Origin: Escherichia coli
Lineage (GTDB): Bacteria > Pseudomonadota > Gammaproteobacteria > Enterobacterales > Enterobacteriaceae
Assembly: GCF_030013205.1 (NCBI RefSeq)
Contig: NZ_CP122648.1
Strand: one strand, 5' to 3'
DNA length: 64,000 nucleotides
The position numbers were made by a program, and so were the translations under genes. Below, piece by piece: positions 6,334 to 15,379 of the stretch. Numbering within the stretch: position 1 is the first letter of the stretch; every line of letters begins with the position of its first letter. Below the pieces are notes generated by a model. It was not told the origin of the DNA, did not search any database, and worked only from the letters and a program-made list of their open reading frames with translations.

Positions 6334-6360
6334 CCTCCTCTGCGATTTATCATCGCAATC

Positions 6361-6437
6361 AAACGACTCGGGGTGCCCTTCTGCGTGAAGGCTGAGAAAT
6401 ACCCGTATCACCTGATCTGGATAATGCCAGCGTAGGG
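6361..6437 (+). repeat. Left copy of the 77-bp direct repeat: TPP riboswitch aptamer fragment (putative attL)
   Basis: Identical over 77 bp to 15251-15327. The sequence AAACGACTCGGGGTGCCCTTCTGCGTGAAGGCTGAGAAATACCCGTATCACCTGATCTGGATAATGCCAGCGTAGGG is the thiM THI-box aptamer. Confidence 0.9.
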
Positions 6438-6520
6438 GGCCAAAATAGTCTTGAAAATTATGTGGTTGTATCTCTTTTTGACCATAAATCATGCTGTTAA
6501 GGTACAAAAAGGGGTCGTTT

Positions 6521-7828
6521 ATGAGGTCAAGAACTCTCCCATACACATTTCAGCGAAACGGTAATTACTATCTACAAATCCGGCTTTCGGATGGTCGGAT
6601 ATACAAAAAATCACTTTTTACTGACAGTTATCGCGAAGCATCGGCGTTGATGATTGGCCTTACTCCGCACATTCCTTTCGTTAAATCACTCGCTACTCCG
6701 TTGCCGCAATTTAATAAGTTTGTTTCAAACTTGATCGCTTCGTCACGTAACGTAATGATTCCGTTGCCACTCCCTCAGCAATTGAACAATATTTCTAAAG
6801 AAGTTTTGCAGCTTCAACCACCAGCCAAACCGGAAAAGGTGCTAACACTTGCTGATGCGTGGGCTATGTACAAGGAGGAAAGAGGTCGAAATTGGACAAA
6901 ATCGATCTCAATGGCAAATGAGCGTTATATGGAGGTATTGCTTGTTGTCTTGGGAAAAGAAACAGACGTAACGGCAATCACCAAACAAGATATTAAGCGA
7001 GTAATGGAAACTGTCGAAAACTTACCAAAGCGTGTAGTGCAACCGTATAGGTCAATGACTATTCAGCAACTAATCGAATGTGATGATGTGCTGCCAGAGG
7101 ATTTAGTTGGTGCTGAGGCTGTACATAAGCACCTTAAAATCTACAAATCGTTATTCAAAACATTTCTGACTGAAAACAAAGATATTCTATCTAAGTCTCC
7201 GACTGATGGAATAGTAGCGGCACCATCCAAAGCTAGGTTTGGTGCATACAGTGCAGCAGAAATGAAAAAATTTGTAGGATGGGCACTAAAGCAGCCTGAT
7301 GGATGGCAGAAGTGGATCACTTTGTTGTTGGCGTACACAGGAGCCAGAAGAGGTGAGATTGCTAAACTGGAGAAGTCGCAGATCAAATTTGATGAAGATA
7401 GCCAGCGGCACTATCTTCTGATCGCGGAAAGAAGGCTGGGTAAAACTGAGAATGCTACAAGACAGGTAGTGATTCATCCCAAACTGATTGAGTGGGGGTT
7501 TCTGGATTTTGTTAACCGCCAATGGAAAGAGAAAATCTTTTCGGAAGTCTCAGGTCGAAATATGTCAAAGATAGGTAAAGTTCTTTCAGATGTTCGTGAT
7601 CAGCTTGATATTCCTTATCTTGATGATTATGGGCAGCGGCGCTTGGTGCATAGTTTCCGGCATACTATGATTTCTACTTGTTTAGCTGGTTGGGTGAGTA
7701 ATTTGGCGCATCTGCAACAGGTGGTAGGTCATGAGAAAAGCGGTTTAGGGATTACCAGACGCTATTTGCACTCTTTTCCTTTACGTTCAATTTGTTACGT
7801 GATTGATGGTTTGGACTGGTTAAATTGA
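6521..7828 (+). CDS. Tyrosine recombinase / phage-type integrase
   Basis: ATG 6521 with SD AAGGGG (6509-6514). C-terminal catalytic residues are visible: ARRGE (Arg), HSFRH (His-x-x-Arg), GHEK (His), RRYLH (Tyr). The track start at 6491 adds 10 aa. Confidence 0.9.
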   Translation: MRSRTLPYTFQRNGNYYLQIRLSDGRIYKKSLFTDSYREASALMIGLTPHIPFVKSLATPLPQFNKFVSNLIASSRNVMIPLPLPQQLNNISKEVLQLQPPAKPEKVLTLADAWAMYKEERGRNWTKSISMANERYMEVLLVVLGKETDVTAITKQDIKRVMETVENLPKRVVQPYRSMTIQQLIECDDVLPEDLVGAEAVHKHLKIYKSLFKTFLTENKDILSKSPTDGIVAAPSKARFGAYSAAEMKKFVGWALKQPDGWQKWITLLLAYTGARRGEIAKLEKSQIKFDEDSQRHYLLIAERRLGKTENATRQVVIHPKLIEWGFLDFVNRQWKEKIFSEVSGRNMSKIGKVLSDVRDQLDIPYLDDYGQRRLVHSFRHTMISTCLAGWVSNLAHLQQVVGHEKSGLGITRRYLHSFPLRSICYVIDGLDWLN

Positions 7829-7927
7829 TGTGAGCCTCGTGAGAAAGGGAATAAATAGAGAAAATCAAGTTGTTACCTCATTGGCAGGGGATATAATGAC
7901 CATATTGTCATCTTGAGGAACAAAAGT

Positions 7928-9499
7928 ATGGTTGCTCGTTCTAACCTTGTAAATTTAGATGCACTGATTAAGCGTGCTGATTTAGGTTTAAAGATCCAAG
8001 ATAACTCTTCATTTGAAACGCTAAACAGTATTCCTGCAAGAGAATTGAAATCAGGAAGTGGAATTGCTGCGCTTCTGAGAAAACCAGATTTCCAGCGTGA
8101 AACAAATCATTGGGGGCCTGAGCAGGTTGTATCGCTTCTCGAATGCTACATCAATGGTGATTTGATACCTTCCGTTATTCTTTGGCGGTCTTCAACCCAT
8201 CTTTTTGTGATCGATGGTGGTCATCGTTTAAGTGCGTTACGTGCTTGGGTTGAAGATGATTATGGCGACGGTCATATATCCCATCAACTTTTTGGGCATG
8301 ATATTCCTCGTGAACAACGCCGCGCTGCAGATAGAACGAGAAAGCTTGTGAAGGAGAGGGTCGGTAGCTGGGAATATTATCAGAAGTTGCTTGCCGATGA
8401 TGCTTCATTGACCGAGGAACAGCAGAGAAGAATCAGCGTATTAACATCTCGTGGAATCTCAGTCCAATGGGTAGTGGGTGATGTAGATAAGGCAGAAACT
8501 TCATTTTTTAACATCAATATGAAGGGAACTCCTCTTGATGCTATCGAAGAGATGCTTCTAAAAAATCGCAAGAAAAGTATTCCGATAGCAACCCGAGCAA
8601 TTATTCGTGCCGGTAGAGGTCATCGCTATTGGTCGGGGTTTGATCAGAGCATTGCCCAGCAACTTGAAGATAAATCTGCAAAGCTGCATCGTTTGCTGTT
8701 CGAACCTGAAGTTGATCGCCCTATTAAAACTCTTGATCTTCCATTAGGCGGTTCTAGGGGGGTCAGGACAGCGATCCAAGTTTTGAAAGATTTCTTACTG
8801 ATCACTGATTGCAACCAGAATGGTGTTTTGAAAAAAATCGAAGCCTACCCTGATGATGCGTCGGGTGCTGATACGTTAAGAATCCTTTCCAAAGCCACAT
8901 CATTAAGCAATAGAATTACAGGCAATGGCGATGGTAGCTTGGGGCTTCATCCAGCGATTTATTTTTATGGTCCGACTGGAATCCACTCAACGCCAATGTT
9001 TCTAGGAACTGTGCTACTGGTGGCAAAACAACTCTCTAACAATAATGGTCAATTCTTTAAAGACTTCACAACAATCAGATCTAGGCTTGAGAGAATAATG
9101 ATCGAATTTAAGGACTTGATCGCAATGATAGTACAAAAACCAGGTAGTAATGTCCGAGTGGCTCGCTACTGTGATTTTTTAAATGCGGTGATCAAATCAC
9201 TCAAGCAGGGAGAGAATATTGATGAGAGTAAGCTTATCGAGCTGGCCGAATTGGAGGGGAGAATACTCTCTGGAGATTTTAAGAGAACATCAGCAAAAAT
9301 CAGCGATGAACAAAAAAGTAAGGTGTTCATTGACGTGGCTCTGCGCAACGCTTTGAAATGTCCGATTTGCCAAGGTTACCTTGATACTGAAAAGTCAGTT
9401 TCTTATGATCATATCGTACGTGTCCGTGAGGGAGGAGATGGTAATTCTGACAATGTACAGTTGACACACCCTTACTGTAACCAGTCAGTGAAGTGTTAA
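7928..9499 (+). CDS. DUF262/ParB-like (DGQHR-type) N-terminal domain fused to a C-terminal zinc-ribbon HNH nuclease; candidate defence nuclease
   Basis: ATG 7928 with SD GAGGA. Motifs: KPDFQRE, VIDGGHRLSALRAW, FFNINMKGTPL. C-terminal sequence: CPICQGYLDTEKSVSYDHIVRVREGGDGNSDNVQLTHPYCN. The track start at 7913 is a TTG. Confidence 0.8.
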   Translation: MVARSNLVNLDALIKRADLGLKIQDNSSFETLNSIPARELKSGSGIAALLRKPDFQRETNHWGPEQVVSLLECYINGDLIPSVILWRSSTHLFVIDGGHRLSALRAWVEDDYGDGHISHQLFGHDIPREQRRAADRTRKLVKERVGSWEYYQKLLADDASLTEEQQRRISVLTSRGISVQWVVGDVDKAETSFFNINMKGTPLDAIEEMLLKNRKKSIPIATRAIIRAGRGHRYWSGFDQSIAQQLEDKSAKLHRLLFEPEVDRPIKTLDLPLGGSRGVRTAIQVLKDFLLITDCNQNGVLKKIEAYPDDASGADTLRILSKATSLSNRITGNGDGSLGLHPAIYFYGPTGIHSTPMFLGTVLLVAKQLSNNNGQFFKDFTTIRSRLERIMIEFKDLIAMIVQKPGSNVRVARYCDFLNAVIKSLKQGENIDESKLIELAELEGRILSGDFKRTSAKISDEQKSKVFIDVALRNALKCPICQGYLDTEKSVSYDHIVRVREGGDGNSDNVQLTHPYCNQSVKC

Positions 9500-9567
9500 A
9501 ATCACGTTTCACTTTTCGTTGTCATTTGTATCGAACGTTTTTGAGAAAGGGCAGGATTGCGAGCGAG

Positions 9568-9720
9568 TTACCAGCGTAAACAGATAAATACTGTTTTCGT
9601 AAGCCCACTGTCGCCGCTTTCCGCTCTGCAATTTTTGCTTGTCGGGGGGCTAATTGTGGCTTTGCTTGCCATAACATTAAAAGTCAGTAATATACTGAAA
9701 ATTAATACAATACTTTTCAT
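9568..9720 (-). CDS. Possible 50-aa exported peptide (below the ORF-track cutoff)
   Basis: Hand translation of the minus strand gives MKSIVLIFSILLTFNVMASKATISPPTSKNCRAESGDSGLTKTVFICLRW*. The N-terminus is signal-like and the SD is weak (GGGA). Confidence 0.35.
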   Translation of the reverse strand: MKSIVLIFSILLTFNVMASKATISPPTSKNCRAESGDSGLTKTVFICLRW

Positions 9721-9863
9721 ATATCCCATTGAATATTCAGTTCATTGCCAAATAGCAAGCGGAGCACTCTCTCTTTAACGTTGTAGTAACTTAGTTGAAC
9801 AATTTTATAATATAATTTGTCTAAGTTGGTTGATGTATCAAAGCCTTTTTCTGAAGAATGAAT

Positions 9864-9883
9864 TGGCGTGATTACTCACGCCA
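9864..9883 (-). terminator. Hairpin 5 nt after the stop of the 9888-10235 gene
   Basis: TGGCGTGA (9864-9871) pairs with TCACGCCA (9876-9883), loop TTAC. The downstream tract on the minus strand is only moderately U-rich. Confidence 0.4.
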
Positions 9884-9887
9884 GATT

Positions 9888-10235
9888 TTAAATTTCAGAA
9901 CATAGGCTAAGCGTATAGACAGCAGTTTGCCCATCATTGTTAGTCGGTCTCATAACGAAAACAGGCTGACTCCCATTATCAATGTATGTGACTGCAACCC
10001 CTCCATCAGGTGTGGCATACATTTTTGCGATGCTTTTTTGACCTATAAAATCAAGTCTCCAAGTCTTACCACCAAGATGTATTGTCATTTTTTTATCTTG
10101 TATATCAAAAGTTGAATCTACAGAAACTTTCTGACTTCCCGAGTCAATATGACCTTCCTGTATTGCTTTACAGGAAAAGGTTGTGGCGTGGCCCATCACT
10201 GGAATTAACAAAGCGGCAAATACTAGTTTTTTCAT
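9888..10235 (-). CDS. Small exported (periplasmic) protein of unknown function
   Basis: ATG 10235 preceded by GGGAGA. Sec signal peptide MKKLVFAALLIPVMGHA; the mature part looks beta-rich with one Cys near each end. The track ORF has a 19-aa upstream extension. Confidence 0.7.
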   Translation of the reverse strand: MKKLVFAALLIPVMGHATTFSCKAIQEGHIDSGSQKVSVDSTFDIQDKKMTIHLGGKTWRLDFIGQKSIAKMYATPDGGVAVTYIDNGSQPVFVMRPTNNDGQTAVYTLSLCSEI

Positions 10236-10345
10236 TTGTCTCCCTTGATGTGTCAAATGGATGGTGATGCTAATAATACATGATTGATTCAAAATGTCAC
10301 GATTAGTGCGTGGTTAATTGGTGCGTCAAATTGCATCTTTGTGCC

Positions 10346-10810
10346 ATGCGAAAGAATCTGAGATACCTTTTTGGACAACGAGTAAAAGAGTTCCGTATAG
10401 CTATTGGCTTAAGCCAAGAGGCCTTTGCAGATCGGTGTGGTTTTGCTCGTAGTTATATGAGTCGAATTGAGCGTGGTTGCTCTAATGCATCTCTTGATGC
10501 AATTGAGGTTCTGGCTGACGCTTTGCGTATTGAGCCTTGGCAGTTACTAGCTTCTGATTCAAGGAAAACTGATGATCAGGAGGTACTTGTTCCTTATGCT
10601 GCAGATGGGTCGTGTTTTCATCCAGGATTGGCAAGTACTCGCGATGGTTCGTTTAGAGTAGGGGAAAAATCAGCCCAGAAACGTTTCAGTTCGTTCAATG
10701 ACGCTCTCGAATACCTTCGTGGAATGGAAACCGCGAAGTGGCGTAGGCCTAATGCTAGTGGTAATTGGGGAATTGTATCTGCGGTTAAATGGGATCGACT
10801 GAATCAATAA
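10346..10810 (+). CDS. XRE/Cro-family HTH regulator with an uncharacterised C-terminal domain
   Basis: The sequence MRKNLRYLFGQRVKEFRIAIGLSQEAFADRCGFARSYMSRIERG is a classic XRE HTH. About 85 aa of C-terminal sequence are unassigned. Divergent from the 10235 gene. Confidence 0.8.
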   Translation: MRKNLRYLFGQRVKEFRIAIGLSQEAFADRCGFARSYMSRIERGCSNASLDAIEVLADALRIEPWQLLASDSRKTDDQEVLVPYAADGSCFHPGLASTRDGSFRVGEKSAQKRFSSFNDALEYLRGMETAKWRRPNASGNWGIVSAVKWDRLNQ

Positions 10811-10976
10811 GATATCAGTAATTTTCGGGCCACTCCACAAGGCAATAAGTGGCTTAGTGGTGATTATCGAAGGGGAATACAAGCGAGCACCTAGGCACCA
10901 TTGCAAGAACCGCTCAACGCTGAGATCAGCAAGCCCCGATTTCTGCCGACCGTCCCTGTCAAATATCAAGGAGGCA

Positions 10977-11516
10977 TTACGCCTCCTCTTCTTCCTTCTT
11001 AATTCGCTGTACCGTCGAAGGAGCAACATTAAAGATCTCGGCGGTTTTACGCACTGACACGCCATCAGAAAGGGCTTTCTTTATACCTTCTCGATCCACT
11101 GCCTTACCTTTACCACGCTTTCTAGGATTGACGGCTTGCGCTTCTCGTTTACGTTCTAACATCAGTTCACGTTCACACGTTGCCACTGCCGACAACATAG
11201 TAAGCATCATTTTTCCCATCGCGCTTGTAATGTCTGCAATGATCCCTTCTTTGTGAAAGCGAACAATTACACCACGATTATTAAGTTGTTCCACTAAGGC
11301 AAGAATGTCTAAGGTGTTACGCCCTAAACGATCAAGAGAGTGGACGTGTAAGGTGTCGCCTTCTCTCAGATAGGCTAAACACGCTTGTAAGCCTGGGCGG
11401 TTAGTGTCTTTACCAGACAGCTTATCTTCAAAGACTTTGTCGAGAGTTAGTCCTGCAAGCTGGCGATCAGTATTTTGATCTACAGTGCTCACACGCTTAT
11501 AGCCGATATTGCTCAT
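10977..11516 (-). CDS. Serine recombinase (resolvase/invertase family)
   Basis: MSNIGYKRVSTVDQNTDRQ carries the catalytic Ser motif, and there is a C-terminal HTH (VRKTAEIFNVAPSTVQRI). 179 aa from ATG 11516. Confidence 0.9.
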   Translation of the reverse strand: MSNIGYKRVSTVDQNTDRQLAGLTLDKVFEDKLSGKDTNRPGLQACLAYLREGDTLHVHSLDRLGRNTLDILALVEQLNNRGVIVRFHKEGIIADITSAMGKMMLTMLSAVATCERELMLERKREAQAVNPRKRGKGKAVDREGIKKALSDGVSVRKTAEIFNVAPSTVQRIKKEEEEA

Positions 11517-11529
11517 AAAATCCCCTTGA

Positions 11530-11654
11530 TGTATCGATTTGGCACCACTCCAATGCAAATGAGTGTGTTGTATTCATTTGGTCTGTTTCAAGCCTTATGG
11601 ATACGGAATATTACACGATTTAGCTGTATTCATTTGGTATGCCTAATGGATACG
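11530..11654. promoter_or_regulatory. Putative res site (2-3 imperfect inverted-repeat subsites) upstream of the resolvase gene
   Basis: TGTATTCAT (11569-11577) with ATGGATACG (11597-11605), and TGTATTCAT (11625-11633) with ATGGATACG (11646-11654), at different spacings. A weaker third half-site TGTATCGAT lies at 11530-11538. Confidence 0.45.
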
Positions 11655-12165
11655 CAGGGGGATAGATTAAATGGTGTTCTGTTTATACAGGTTTATTTGT
11701 TAGATCAACAAGTTGGCATTTCTAAACAGATGTTTGAACGTTGCCAAATGCCTTGACAACACAAGAAAATGGCTTGCTATGAACGCATTACACGAAATAA
11801 GGCTATAAAAACAAAATAAATTTTAAAATTTGCACAAAAACGAGAAAACTCGTTCGACAAATAATAGATTGGTTTTTAATCGACAATTTCTGACAATTTC
11901 TGATGGTGCTCTGTAAACCGCATTACACAAGGCTTTGCGAAAGTGATGTAAAAGTGAAGAAAGTTAACATTGCACTTTGAAGCCATTTTTCATTGGATTT
12001 TTTAGTAGGGAATTACACAGGGAATAGAGAGCATTATTCTATGATTTACACAGGGAATATAGGGGATTATGGCACACACATAGAAAGGCATTACACAGAG
12101 TGAGTGCTATGTGATGATTGGTAGTAACGGTAGGTCACTGTGAGCTACCCCCCACAGAATTCTGT

Positions 12166-12286
12166 TACCCCTATCAAGTCTAACAGGGGTTTATAAAGAA
12201 TAATAAACCGATGATACCCCTATCAATATTGATACCCCTATTAGCTTTGATATGACTACCCCTATCAAAACTGATACCCGATAAGA
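12166..12286 (+). repeat. Array of five direct repeats (TGA)TACCCCTATCAA followed by an AT-rich stretch (ori-like iterons plus DUE)
   Basis: TACCCCTATCAA at 12166, 12215 and 12257. Variants TACCCCTATTAG at 12233 and TACCCGATAAGA at 12275. An AT-rich run follows at about 12281-12340. Confidence 0.7.
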
Positions 12287-12440
12287 ATAAGTTAATAAGA
12301 ATAATTAAATAATATTCTTTATATCTATATATATGATCTTTTTGCCTTCCGGCGTTAGCTTCACTCTCTGGCAAGCAGCCTTACTCCGCTATCTTTGGGC
12401 TTCGTGGCTGGCCCGTTCCGCTCACACCGAAAGCAAAGCG

Positions 12441-12518
12441 TTACTCTTCTTCGTGTAACTATCGTTGGCGGTAACGCCACACGAAGAAATACTATTGCGC
12501 TGTGCGCAGTAAGAGTAA
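12441..12518. other. GC-richer segment with nested inverted repeats (three-way-junction-like fold; function unknown)
   Basis: TTACTCTT (12441-12448) pairs with AAGAGTAA (12511-12518). CTTCGTGT (12449-12456) pairs with ACACGAAG (12479-12486). TGCGC (12496-12500) pairs with GCGCA (12504-12508). Confidence 0.3.
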
Positions 12519-13364
12519 TCACCTAACCAATCACCTGATTGCTTACGTGTTAACTCTCTCTAACTCTTAATTACCCTCCTACATTTAATAACTCTATTAT
12601 TCTCTGTAGTTGTGTAATTACTCGAAGAGAGAGCGGCTAAAGCTCAATTACACTCTGCTTTCCTCGTGTAATTTCACTAAGCCTCAATACAATTTCACTT
12701 CCTACATTCTGTAGTCGTGTAATAGTTTTCGGTGGGGAAAAGCCAGAGGCGACACCGAAAGAAAATTCTGATCTTATTAATCTTATCTATCTTAGTTAAT
12801 CTTCTTACTTACTTTATCTACTTTATTATTAATAATAGCTTTATAAGCTCTCTGTGTAGCTCTCTGACGCAAGAAACAGCATTCAGGAAGGGAATCACCT
12901 TAGAAAAGTGTTCTTTGCGTCATAATGTGTTTTATGAAGGATTCAGAGGTGTTTCATAACACAAGGTATAGAGGATATTTTAGTTAATTAAAAATAAGGG
13001 GGCTAAATGCTTCTCTAACAGCATTAAGCAGGGTAGAGAATGGAAATGCATTGCCTACGTATATATAAACTCACTACAAGGCTTTACAGAGCGTTTTATA
13101 AAGTAACTAATCTAAGAACTCTCTGTTTTATATCTATCATCATCTTTCCATCATCTAACAAATACAAAATAAGCCCCTTAAATAAGCCTCTGGCGAGCTA
13201 AACAGCCATTACATAAGGGAATGTATTTCTTTTATCAAAACTTCGTTAGAACGCGTTTTAGAGCGTTTTATACAATAAGGAAGAATAGGACCGTCCGCAA
13301 GAGCACGAATTGCTAAGAAAGAATGTAAACGCATGAAAAATATCAGATTTTTTATGAAAATATA

Positions 13365-13393
13365 TTGACAAATGTTTCTTTATATGTAATAAT
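13365..13393 (+). promoter_or_regulatory. Near-consensus sigma70 promoter of the Rep-like module
   Basis: TTGACA (13365-13370), a 17-bp spacer ending in TGT (extended -10 type), then AATAAT (13388-13393). Confidence 0.6.
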
Positions 13394-13444
13394 AGGTATT
13401 AGAGAGACAGAAAAACATTCTTCTCTAAATAATCAAAATCAATG

Positions 13445-13483
13445 CACTTTGAAGCCGTCAGGCTTGCAAGGTGTTTTTCTTTT
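13445..13483 (+). terminator. Intrinsic-terminator-like hairpin in the leader between the promoter and the first ORF (attenuator or short sRNA 3' end)
   Basis: CACTTTGAAGCC (13445-13456) pairs with GGCTTGCAAGGTG (13461-13473) with two mismatches, followed by TTTTTCTTTT. SD AAGGAG and ATG 13504 follow. Confidence 0.5.
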
Positions 13484-13503
13484 AACTGAATAAGGAGTTT
13501 TTT

Positions 13504-13692
13504 ATGAAATGGTTTACACCGGAACACGTCGTAGAGGCATTTAAAAAAGGTGAGCTAACACGACATCAAGTAGTAATGAATCGTAATATGGCAAGGAGTC
13601 GAGGTTATCCAGAGCGTGAAAAATGTTTCGATGCAGCACTAAAAATTATTGATAAATTAAGAAAAAATGAAAAAGGATCTGAAACAGAGTAA
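13504..13692 (+). CDS. Small basic protein of unknown function (62 aa)
   Basis: Strong SD AAGGAG 7 nt upstream of the ATG. First ORF after the promoter and leader. Confidence 0.6.
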   Translation: MKWFTPEHVVEAFKKGELTRHQVVMNRNMARSRGYPEREKCFDAALKIIDKLRKNEKGSETE

Positions 13693-13711
13693 AGAAGAGA
13701 AGGAGAAAACT

Positions 13712-13882
13712 ATGAGCGAAACTACAGAAAAGAAAAGACAACCACGCACTTGCTTTCATATTCCTGATGAAGTATTTCAGGTGTTGTTTAAAGAAGCCAG
13801 AAGTAAACGTATCACTGTTACAGATTACATTCTTGATATGTTGAAAAGAGAGGCTGAAACACTCTCAAATAAAAGCAAGTGA
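13712..13882 (+). CDS. Ribbon-helix-helix (CopG/Arc-like) DNA-binding protein (56 aa)
   Basis: ATG 13712 with SD GAAGGAG. RTCFHIPDEVFQVLFKEARSKRITVTDYILDMLKR fits the RHH strand-helix-helix pattern. The track start at 13667 overlaps the previous ORF. Confidence 0.6.
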   Translation: MSETTEKKRQPRTCFHIPDEVFQVLFKEARSKRITVTDYILDMLKREAETLSNKSK

Positions 13883-13936: not shown

Positions 13937-14599
13937 ATGATTAAACATACAAAACCTTTCTTAGGAATAGATTATGACTTACTAGCAATCACTTCCCTAG
14001 TGATTAACGGCAAAACAAAAGAAGTAAAACTACATCATAAGATCATTTATTCTTATTTGTTAAGTTTATCTGGCACATATCAAAAGGTAACACCATCTTT
14101 GAAAGGTATTGGTGAGCGGTTAGGAGTAGGTACAGATCAGACGGTACGCCGTCATATCAAAGATCTTGTTTCTTTTGGATGGTTGAAGATTGAGGAAAGG
14201 GCAGGTAGCACAAATGCTTATATTGTCCTTCCTTATGAACAAGAAGCCCAGACACAACAAGAAGCTACCGTTAAAGCTGTTCAGGAACAGCTTCCCCCTA
14301 CGGAAGATAATAAAGAGTTTTCTTTTGATGTTCTTGATGATTGGGATGCGCCTTTACCTTGGGAAATGGAAGAAACGCCATCTGATGAAAAGGTAGCTAA
14401 TGATAATGAGGAGGATGTGTTAGAGAATTTTGCCTCTCTTATCATCCAGGAGAAACACACAAGAACAGGAGGGGCATCATTTATAGAATTTGCAACATCG
14501 TTAGCCTGTAAGCACAGGATAAAGCTACCAAATGGTATTGAGGCATATTTTGCTAAGAAACATCCCAAAGTATATGAAGACTTTGATATTCCATTTTAA
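13937..14599 (+). CDS. Winged-HTH protein with an acidic C-terminal region; putative replication initiator / DNA-binding protein
   Basis: SD AAGGAG precedes the ATG. wHTH-like segment LKGIGERLGVGTDQTVRRHIKDLVSFGWLKIEERAGSTNAYIV, then an acidic tail (DDWDAPLPWEMEETPSDEKVANDNEEDV). It lies next to the iteron region. The CDS call is solid; the function is inferred. Confidence 0.6.
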   Translation: MIKHTKPFLGIDYDLLAITSLVINGKTKEVKLHHKIIYSYLLSLSGTYQKVTPSLKGIGERLGVGTDQTVRRHIKDLVSFGWLKIEERAGSTNAYIVLPYEQEAQTQQEATVKAVQEQLPPTEDNKEFSFDVLDDWDAPLPWEMEETPSDEKVANDNEEDVLENFASLIIQEKHTRTGGASFIEFATSLACKHRIKLPNGIEAYFAKKHPKVYEDFDIPF

Positions 14600-15168: not shown

Positions 15169-15250
15169 CAGAGAAGAAGCAATTAATGGAGGCGAGCTTG
15201 CATCTGCAAGCCACTTCCCCTAAGCTGGCACAAAATATAGAGATTCAACC

Positions 15251-15379
15251 AAACGACTCGGGGTGCCCTTCTGCGTGAAGGCTGAGAAATACCCGTATCA
15301 CCTGATCTGGATAATGCCAGCGTAGGGAAGTCACGGACCACCAGGTCATTGCTTCTTCACGTTATGGCAGGAGCAAACT
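15251..15379 (+). promoter_or_regulatory. thiM TPP (THI-box) riboswitch: aptamer plus expression platform (right repeat copy, putative attR)
   Basis: The aptamer sequence matches the well-studied E. coli thiM riboswitch. It continues into AAGTCACGGACCACCAGGTCATTGCTTCTTCACGTTATGGCAGGAGCAAACT and the thiM ATG at 15380. Confidence 0.9.

Follow-up and report, generated by a model that had tools for sequence, protein, structure and literature searches.

Controller (C) circuits of restriction-modification (RM) systems are a textbook genetic timer, thanks to which a dangerous gene can be brought into a new host without harm. C.PvuII-like sites span 35 bp with the pattern Z-X-N-X-GTG-x-n-x-Z*, that is, a strong distal operator, a weak proximal one and an invariant GTG, and the modal distance from operator to C start codon is 17-18 nt, which has been linked to leaderless C mRNAs (PMC2632904). 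The triplets of the canonical C-box are GAC/GTC, the left operator (OL) being used for activation and the right operator (OR) for repression (PMC3488213). The survey of Sorokin et al. 2009 also describes C homologues outside RM systems, located beside integrases or resolvases, as well as a motif 3 group of 18 members of which none accompanies RM genes, and it asks what the non-RM homologues control (PMC2632904). Here, we describe a related locus from Escherichia coli (contig NZ_CP122648.1), found in a 64-kb stretch of DNA that will be referred to as the window. The locus consists of a gene encoding a 154-aa XRE-type helix-turn-helix (HTH) regulator and a divergent gene encoding a 115-aa predicted exported protein, p115 (Table 1). 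We regard it as fairly probable that these genes form a portable two-gene unit, in which a C-protein-type autoregulator would control an envelope protein in an entry-timed manner.

Like the members of the C.PvuII/C.AhdI/C.Esp1396I group, the regulator carries an XRE-type HTH. Its residues 9-63 match Pfam HTH_31 (E=5e-12; 46.4 bits, cut-off 27) and HTH_3 (E=1.4e-9; 38.2 bits, cut-off 23), and the AlphaFold2 (AF2) model of this region is a five-helix bundle (helices 5-19, 24-31, 35-42, 50-60 and 65-68) with a predicted local distance difference test (pLDDT) score >90. Profiles above threshold and five helices place it in the XRE (Cro/C1-type) HTH superfamily. Its closest solved relative is C.AhdI (1Y7Y, E=2.2e-10), followed by C.BclI (E=4.4e-7), and the top PADLOC models are both 'Control_protein' (E=5e-17 and 7e-15). 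Judged by sequence, the HTH is closest to the C proteins of RM systems and not to a generic Cro/cI switch. The family is well conserved over its full length, with 58-81% identity from E. coli to Pseudomonas and 48-62% in Betaproteobacteria. Relatives occur in 958 of 5,426 complete E. coli genomes (about 18%), including O157:H7 and UTI89, and the subgroup extends to Yersinia, Pseudomonas and Betaproteobacteria.

Other types of regulators fit less well. Repressors of the lambda cI/LexA type have a C-terminal S24 peptidase domain with a Ser-Lys dyad; here there is no Peptidase_S24 match, and the b-b-b-a-b-b-b fold of the C-terminal domain has no significant structural match. The only NCBIfam matches are sub-threshold and cover the HTH only, and the neighbouring gene is divergent and encodes an exported protein instead of the co-directional toxin that accompanies type II XRE antitoxins (HigA, HipB, MqsA). 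The PADLOC match to capH (E=9e-9) is likewise limited to the HTH, and the island that carries the module has no peptidase gene, whereas CapH/CapP-type defence regulators adjoin a CapP metallopeptidase gene. Phage cI/Cro switches also combine an HTH regulator of a mobile element with a divergent promoter region containing operators, but the present locus has no second antagonistic regulator, no S24 peptidase or other known C-terminal domain, a single operator cluster, and a divergent gene that is not a lytic or early operon. As no second regulator is present, the circuit is not a Cro/cI pair, in contrast to the Cro/cI-like switch suggested by the initial annotation; its anatomy is that of a C protein (C.AhdI-like HTH, 35-bp double box, 17-nt spacing).

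The spacer between the two genes (10236-10345, 110 bp) contains a sequence that resembles the C.PvuII-type sites in its length, its two operators with tri-nucleotide inverted repeats and AT-rich centre, its central GTG and its strong distal/weak proximal arrangement. In contrast to the GAC/GTC half-sites of C proteins, the half-sites are here CAC/GTG. Between the operator and the ATG at 10346 there are 17 nt (all relatives have 17-18 nt), and this ATG lacks a preceding Shine-Dalgarno sequence, both in the window and in the relatives; 17 nt between operator and a start codon devoid of Shine-Dalgarno sequence is the leaderless geometry of C.PvuII-type genes.

To compare upstream regions, full-length relatives were collected from 27 species, the 80 nt preceding their start codons were aligned, and a weight matrix was built from the first 24 nt of the conserved block. 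The operator block is conserved while the DNA to its left cannot be aligned, and the matrix finds exactly one site per locus, at a fixed distance of 56-57 nt before the start codon. The operator was found at about 46 loci from Enterobacterales to Betaproteobacteria. Of these, 27 encode full-length proteins (Enterobacterales, Pseudomonas, Rhodocyclales and others) and 19 encode shorter, HTH-only relatives (Burkholderiales and others). As it also precedes the HTH-only relatives, it travels with the HTH and not with the C-terminal domain. A scan of the 64-kb window returned one strong match, which is also the only one of the island, and no further operator near the integrase, recombinase or rep-like genes or the iteron region. 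The proposal of the initial annotation that the regulator could be the master repressor of the island thus finds no support.

Recognition helix and box vary together. The helix LDRTYISGIERG is associated with the box GTGACTTATAGTCCGTGG, the canonical C-box; the helix of the present regulator, FARSYMSRIERG, with GTCACGATTAGTGCGTGG; and the helix FARTYMSRIETG with GTCACGATTAGTGTGTGT. One Pseudomonas clade displays yet another variant. In terms of residues, DRTYISG of C proteins becomes ARSYMSR in the regulator, with loss of the equivalent of the base-reading Arg46. We take this joint change of helix and box across loci as good evidence, of a comparative kind, for the box being the cognate operator of the regulator. 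The loci with the canonical C-box (Photorhabdus, Serratia) are not obviously located beside restriction genes. As a separate observation, the codons of the recognition helix (YMSRIERG, 10453-10476) resemble the operator upstream of their own gene (15 of 24 nt; 12-13 bits against 0.6 for the 99.99th percentile), which could be a coincidence, a relic of duplication or a weak internal site.

Three other interpretations of the box were considered and rejected. The three Rhodocyclales boxes (TGGCACGATTAGTGCG) come near the -24/-12 consensus of sigma-54 promoters, but the other 23 loci have GT in place of the essential GG. The box could also be read as an upstream open reading frame (ORF) encoding MSRLVRG (ATG-TCA-CGA-TTA-GTG-CGT-GGT-TAA), but its variable positions are non-synonymous and its ATG is missing in Betaproteobacteria. 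Finally, homology between paralogous E. coli copies starts 4-17 nt to the left of the box, as if it were a site of cassette recombination; selection on the operator alone would be equally expected to produce such a boundary, so that this idea is unsupported.

The divergent partner shares the control region of the regulator, as pvuIIM does with pvuIIC, but it encodes a secreted protein and not an RM enzyme. The N-terminus of p115 (MKKLVFAALLIPVMGHA|TTF) has the n-h-c layout of signal peptides (MKK / LVFAALLIPVM / GHA|TT), with G-H-A at -3 to -1 and a maximum 12-residue hydropathy of 2.55. With its basic n-region, hydrophobic core and small residues at -3/-1, it has the traits of a substrate of Sec and signal peptidase I; a 17-aa signal peptide (cleaved after GHA) and a 98-aa mature chain with a Cys near each end are predicted. 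Cys22 and Cys112 are invariant in 12 homologues, whereas the signal-peptide region varies. p115 would thus be a Sec-exported periplasmic protein and is probably disulphide-bonded. A strong Shine-Dalgarno sequence (AGGGAGA) precedes its ATG. The p115 family comprises 29 clusters, all from Enterobacterales (55-99% identity), and its only family match is phrog_35183, whose function is unknown. No Pfam match (best DUF6406, E=0.022, sub-threshold), no significant NCBIfam or PADLOC match, no PDB profile match, no profile match to known envelope-protection families (lysozyme inhibitors, exclusion lipoproteins and similar) and no homologue in 50,697 phage genomes was found.

The predicted sigma-70 promoter of p115 is the best of the region (10 of 12 matches), and its -35 hexamer lies inside OL. 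The same geometry, GTGACA followed after 16-17 nt by a -10 with five of six matches, occurs in 8 of the 11 loci that have GTGACA and involves five unrelated partner families, the upstream DNA of which is otherwise unrelated.

Exported or membrane partners recur far beyond p115. The divergent neighbour has an N-terminal hydrophobic segment (signal peptide or transmembrane (TM) segment) in 27 of 32 loci (84%), compared with 88 of 401 control ORFs from the same loci (22%; Fisher p about 1e-12, the loci not being independent), and on inspection only the partners of L041 and L049 are clearly cytoplasmic. Because of this excess, the pairing of the regulator with a predicted exported partner is not accidental. 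The partner families are unrelated or remotely related: the beta-rich p115, a 117-aa family, a 165-aa two-TM protein, 211-aa and 243-aa secreted proteins, and a helical 'C...DRD...C' periplasmic family; none has a Pfam or PADLOC match. Furthermore, across the E. coli islands inserted at thiM, p115 and the regulator are 95-98% identical while the adjoining cargo varies (GmrSD-like, HNH, others), which indicates that the pair is a unit of inheritance.

The following mechanism can be proposed. A regulator dimer would bind the strong OL, and a second dimer would bind the weaker OR cooperatively across the conserved GTG. As the start codon lies 17 nt past the operator and lacks a ribosome-binding site, the regulator mRNA is probably leaderless, as in PvuII, AhdI and Esp1396I. 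At low level, the regulator bound to OL would activate its own poorly translated transcript, and at high level the dimer bound to OR would repress it. Occupancy of OL should silence p115 by occluding its promoter, because the -35 hexamer lies inside OL. On entry into a naive cell, p115 would thus be made first and then lowered as the slowly accumulating regulator takes over, an order that parallels methylase before nuclease in C-controlled restriction systems; regulation might also have the opposite sign. The C-terminal domain would be an add-on that modulates oligomerisation or senses a signal. p115 might act in the envelope during establishment, for example by blocking the entry of more DNA or phage, but this is a guess held with low confidence. 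Known exported exclusion proteins of prophages and plasmids, such as P1 Sim, T4 Imm/Sp, phi80 Cor and T5 Llp, are, like p115, small, exported and carried by mobile elements, although no sequence similarity to p115 was detected.

Several points weigh against this reading. Operator binding, the leaderless start, the transcription start sites, the direction of regulation and its timing are all deduced from comparison and analogy. The right operator is a weak site with poor symmetry, and the regulator ATG has no convincing -10 before it, a situation that Sorokin et al. also describe for known C genes (PMC2632904). C proteins are single-domain proteins of 70-100 aa, whereas the regulator has 154 aa with an extra 77-aa domain, and C genes precede a co-transcribed nuclease gene, whereas the regulator gene is followed by a convergent recombinase gene. 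The island contains no methylase gene, and its GmrSD-like nuclease gene lies upstream, separated from the regulator by the relic described below, a hairpin and p115. The regulator thus belongs, by sequence, to the C-protein family, yet two class-defining features, the co-transcribed nuclease/methylase and the single domain, are missing. Genes of the p115 family also occur without regulator or operator, which implies that p115 does not depend on the regulator; the gene order in E. coli islands carrying Kiwa is p68(-), p116(+), recombinase(+). Moreover, the shared -35 geometry is missing in betaproteobacterial loci and in the commonest partner class, the 165-aa two-TM protein, where the box reads GAGACA and the start lies about 220 nt away.

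The orphan C homologues of Sorokin et al. resemble the locus in their C.PvuII-like double boxes, leaderless spacing and setting in mobile elements with integrases and resolvases; their survey reports neither a fused C-terminal domain nor a recurrent exported or membrane partner, both of which are present here (PMC2632904). C homologues outside RM systems are therefore already known. For three features of the locus (the domain fused to the HTH, the recurrence of an exported partner and the geometry shared by promoter and operator), we found no description in the literature, nor did we find one of the module itself; these features appear new.

Table 1. Features of the module and of its island (window positions; OL and OR, left and right operators)
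Feature	Position	Strand	Details
Tyrosine integrase	6521-7828		first in island gene order
DUF262/GmrSD_N + HNH nuclease	7928-9499		second in island gene order
Studied module (relic, p115, regulator)	9509-10810		third in island gene order
Frameshifted relic of a 68/69-aa exported-protein gene	9509-9729	-	not annotated in RefSeq
G+C-rich hairpin between relic and p115 gene	9863-9884		terminator-like on both strands
p115 gene, 115-aa precursor	9888-10235	-	RefSeq 'hypothetical protein'
Predicted sigma-70 promoter of p115	10273-10300	-	-35 GTGACA 10300-10295, 16 nt, -10 TATTAT 10278-10273
35-bp double C-box-like operator	10294-10328	+	ATG-TCACG-ATT-AGTGC-GTG-GTTAA-TTG-GTGCG-TCA
OL	10297-10309		triplets CAC 10298-10300 and GTG 10306-10308 (CAC-GATTA-GTG)
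Central GTG	10310-10312		between OL and OR
OR (weaker)	10313-10325		
Regulator ORF, 154 aa	10346-10810	+	RefSeq 'helix-turn-helix domain-containing protein'
C-protein-like XRE HTH domain, aa 1-70	10346-10555	+	Pfam, PADLOC, PDB, AF2
C-terminal domain, aa 78-154 (77 aa)	10577-10807	+	beta-rich, b-b-b-a-b-b-b
Terminator-like hairpin after regulator gene, overlapping the 3' end of the recombinase gene	10969-10987	+	AGGAGGCATTACGCCTCCT then CTTCTTCCTT
Serine recombinase, convergent with regulator	10977-11516	-	fourth in island gene order
Gene-free region of about 1.9 kb, iteron-like repeats	11560-13500		after recombinase
Small ORFs, HTH_36 protein, HTH_73 protein	right part of island		profile matches

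The C-terminal domain of the regulator carries the invariant signature W-R-R-P-N...G-N-W-G...W and is conserved as strongly as the HTH. It is modelled confidently both in the full-length protein and by itself (pLDDT 94.5), yet residues 70-154 have no Pfam match and the domain has no match among solved structures. A search with the domain alone retrieved 467 clusters at 50% identity; one further protein search of this kind gave mostly fragments. In almost every case the domain forms the C-terminus, behind the present HTH, an ASCH domain, an RNase_T exonuclease or a long N-terminal region of unknown type; in 23 of 147 representatives it occurs by itself. Its fusion to the HTH is found in only 3 of 2.9 million IMG/VR contigs and in 1 of 50,697 phage records. 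As HTH-only relatives share the operator, the domain is accessory to DNA binding, and its role is most likely in oligomerisation or signal sensing. Genomic context for the other architectures comes from just two short, unrelated metagenome contigs (L106 and L107), where the domain proteins adjoin a small H-x3-R-x3-RGI protein of toxin-like appearance. Two contigs are too small a basis for interpretation, although they raise the possibility of toxin-antitoxin-like pairs as another setting of the domain.

The genes, spacer and hairpin of the initial annotation were all recovered: the 154-aa XRE protein with a C-terminal domain that it could not place, the 110-bp spacer, the opposite-strand 115-aa protein with a signal peptide and a Cys near each end, and the hairpin after it (+ strand TTGGCGTGATTACTCACGCCAG then ATTTTAAATT; - strand TGGCGTGAGTAATCACGCCA then ATTCATTCTT). 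Its wider picture of a regulator facing a Sec-type exported protein in a mobile element also stands, the element being delimited by attachment (att) repeats. By contrast, the possible 50-aa ORF that it gave as a second exported protein (9568-9729, - strand) is the signal-peptide half of a frameshifted 68/69-aa gene. Because one base is missing in a G6/C6 run at 9644-9649, the half that encodes the conserved C-terminus (...YENSIYLFTLVTRSQSCPFSKTFDTNDNEK) is found in a different frame, at 9512-9646. The family is intact in other E. coli islands (L017, 5614-5820; L108, 6005-6214), and tblastn of the intact L017 protein against the window matches 9515-9646 (aa 27-68, 50% identity). Three-frame translation and DNA alignment with L108 and L017 show a 1-nt deletion, a 3-nt insertion and replacement of the first conserved Cys. 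The module carries one intact gene for a predicted exported protein and one relic.

The window sequence from 9300 to 11700 is 100% identical to chromosomes of porcine enterotoxigenic E. coli such as ETEC1748, in which the module interval lies inside an 8.9-kb insertion between rcnR and thiM. The ends of this island are a perfect 78-bp direct repeat (6360-6437 and 15250-15327) corresponding to the 5' part of the thiM thiamine pyrophosphate (TPP) riboswitch, which Rfam accordingly matches twice (6359-6454 and 15249-15345). The module is thus carried by an 8.9-kb island inserted in the thiM TPP riboswitch. The left riboswitch copy retains the native thiM promoter side and lies 66 nt upstream of the integrase gene, so that transcription of the integrase gene may begin at the thiM promoter and pass through a hybrid TPP aptamer. 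Upstream of the right copy, which remains with thiM, the DNA now belongs to the island.

Sister islands at this site have a constant backbone, the gene after the integrase being replaced (for example by an HNH nuclease gene or IS-disrupted genes, IS standing for insertion sequence). In E. coli B, this island is known for housing the type IV enzyme EcoBLMcrX (ecoBLmcrX), and the paper that reports this does not discuss the regulator/p115 module (PMC5487053). A literature search returned nothing on DUF6538, nor any description of the thiM hotspot in Hochhauser et al. 2023. In the present island, the cargo nuclease (523 aa, GmrSD_N (DUF262) + HNH) is probably a type IV, modification-dependent enzyme. 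In a metagenome-assembled genome of Burkholderiaceae (L048), a regulator homologue and a homologue of this nuclease (56% identity) are only 2.4 kb apart, which indicates that the cargo is common to different bacterial classes. Positions 7478-7906, which comprise the last part of the integrase gene and the spacer after it, are 94.7% identical to a segment of the virulent Escherichia phage muut (146 kb) that is annotated there as hypothetical proteins.

The region downstream of the recombinase gene has no credible ORF, but direct repeats abound in it: TGTTACCCCTATCAA occurs four times at 12163-12268, and GAATTACACAGGGAATAGAG is present in two to three copies at 12010-12070. After this region come an ORF for a ribbon-helix-helix-like protein of 71 aa (13667-13882) and the gene of the HTH_36 protein (13937-14599). 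This looks like an iteron origin with a Rep-like module; therefore, the excised island may replicate, and the neighbouring serine recombinase could act as a multimer resolvase. That recombinase is just 36-38% identical to those of other loci. Because the order of recombinase and regulator differs among loci, an invertible segment was considered, but inverted repeats flanking 9500-10970 are only at chance level and the idea was dropped.

Related islands occur elsewhere. A complete 10.5-kb island lies between two tRNA-Thr copies next to proA in UTI89 (L112) and encodes, in order, a DUF6538 integrase, NIPSNAP, a Gabija-like UvrD and OLD-type ATPase, a recombinase, a 165-aa membrane protein, the regulator and a 304-aa protein; in O157:H7 (L111), a copy lies beside a Zorya system of type II. 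Together, they give the impression of one family of minimal islands in which a fixed backbone carries defence cargo. A 9.7-kb sequence from a human faecal virome (L110, MT836560.1, 'UNVERIFIED: Bacteriophage sp.') is an island of the same family. It contains, in order, genes for a 665-aa integrase, cargo, a recombinase, a 322-aa protein and two exported proteins in tandem, and lastly the operator with the gene of a 158-aa regulator; packaging of the island could explain why it turns up in a virome.

With such neighbours, the pair could be read as a two-gene anti-phage or abortive-infection module: the C-terminal domain would sense a phage cue, the regulator would leave the operator, and the partner would block entry or kill. 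Defence cargo is indeed common in these islands (the GmrSD-like nuclease here; Gabija-like, Kiwa, Zorya II, OLD-family and restriction systems in relatives), the partners are as diverse as interchangeable small exported or membrane effectors would be, the C-terminal domain is fused elsewhere to nucleic-acid-related domains (ASCH, RNase_T exonuclease), and in the Yersinia relatives a single-TM protein encoded after the regulator has a weak match to the PADLOC '1TM effector' (E=0.0012). However, no partner matches a PADLOC model, p115 is predicted to be cleaved, soluble and periplasmic, hence an improbable cell-killing effector, and it is also found without the regulator. Furthermore, the HTH-only relatives have the same operator and kind of partner but not the proposed sensor domain. 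Such a module thus appears unlikely. It is similarly doubtful that the regulator is a backbone gene serving the life cycle of the island (excision, replication, transfer), with the exported protein merely the last cargo gene. Serine recombinases are found within 8 kb at 20 of 27 domain-bearing loci against 4 of 19 HTH-only loci, and integrases at 15 of 27 against 3 of 19; in complete islands such as that of UTI89, Int, NIPSNAP, recombinase, membrane protein, regulator and 304-aa protein are fixed around changing cargo; and the non-RM C homologues of Sorokin et al. also lie beside integrases and resolvases (PMC2632904). A life-cycle regulator is nevertheless hard to reconcile with one operator per island, located directly before its own gene and absent near int, recombinase, iterons and rep-like gene. 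For a random last cargo gene, one would not expect an exported or membrane-bound product in 84% of loci when the background is 22%, nor a -35 hexamer shared with the operator.

Least credible of all is a decayed remnant of RM control, that is, a neutral orphan C gene that has lost its nuclease and methylase and has no functional tie to p115. Vestiges of destroyed restriction systems were proposed by Sorokin et al. to account for many orphan C homologues (PMC2632904), and there are IS-flanked copies on E. coli plasmids and a pseudogene adjoining the module. Yet the full-length identities given above for Pseudomonas and Betaproteobacteria, an operator conserved base for base and co-varying with the helix, and the presence of relatives in 958 of 5,426 complete E. 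coli genomes indicate purifying selection and not decay.

Under the reading that we favour, a C-protein-type autoregulator controlling an envelope protein, the locus offers, for one large C-like subgroup, a concrete and testable answer to the question of what such regulators control: they share their operator with the promoter of a gene whose product is small and either secreted or membrane-bound. A bolder extension would see in the regulator, together with an exchangeable exported or membrane partner, a widespread and so far unrecognised envelope module of defence islands, timed by entry and closing the cell to further phage or DNA; this seems rather improbable. The periplasmic or membrane factor would then be made only in the first generations after arrival, or upon a signal read by the C-terminal domain. 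If true, it would answer the question raised in 2009 about non-RM C proteins and define a new domain fold. The 77-aa domain folds confidently in models, has no Pfam model or structural relative and occurs in hundreds of protein clusters. Should the exported partners turn out to serve exclusion or envelope defence, the module would represent a new type of cargo or backbone function in defence islands; if they do not, it would be a known type of regulator reused outside restriction systems.

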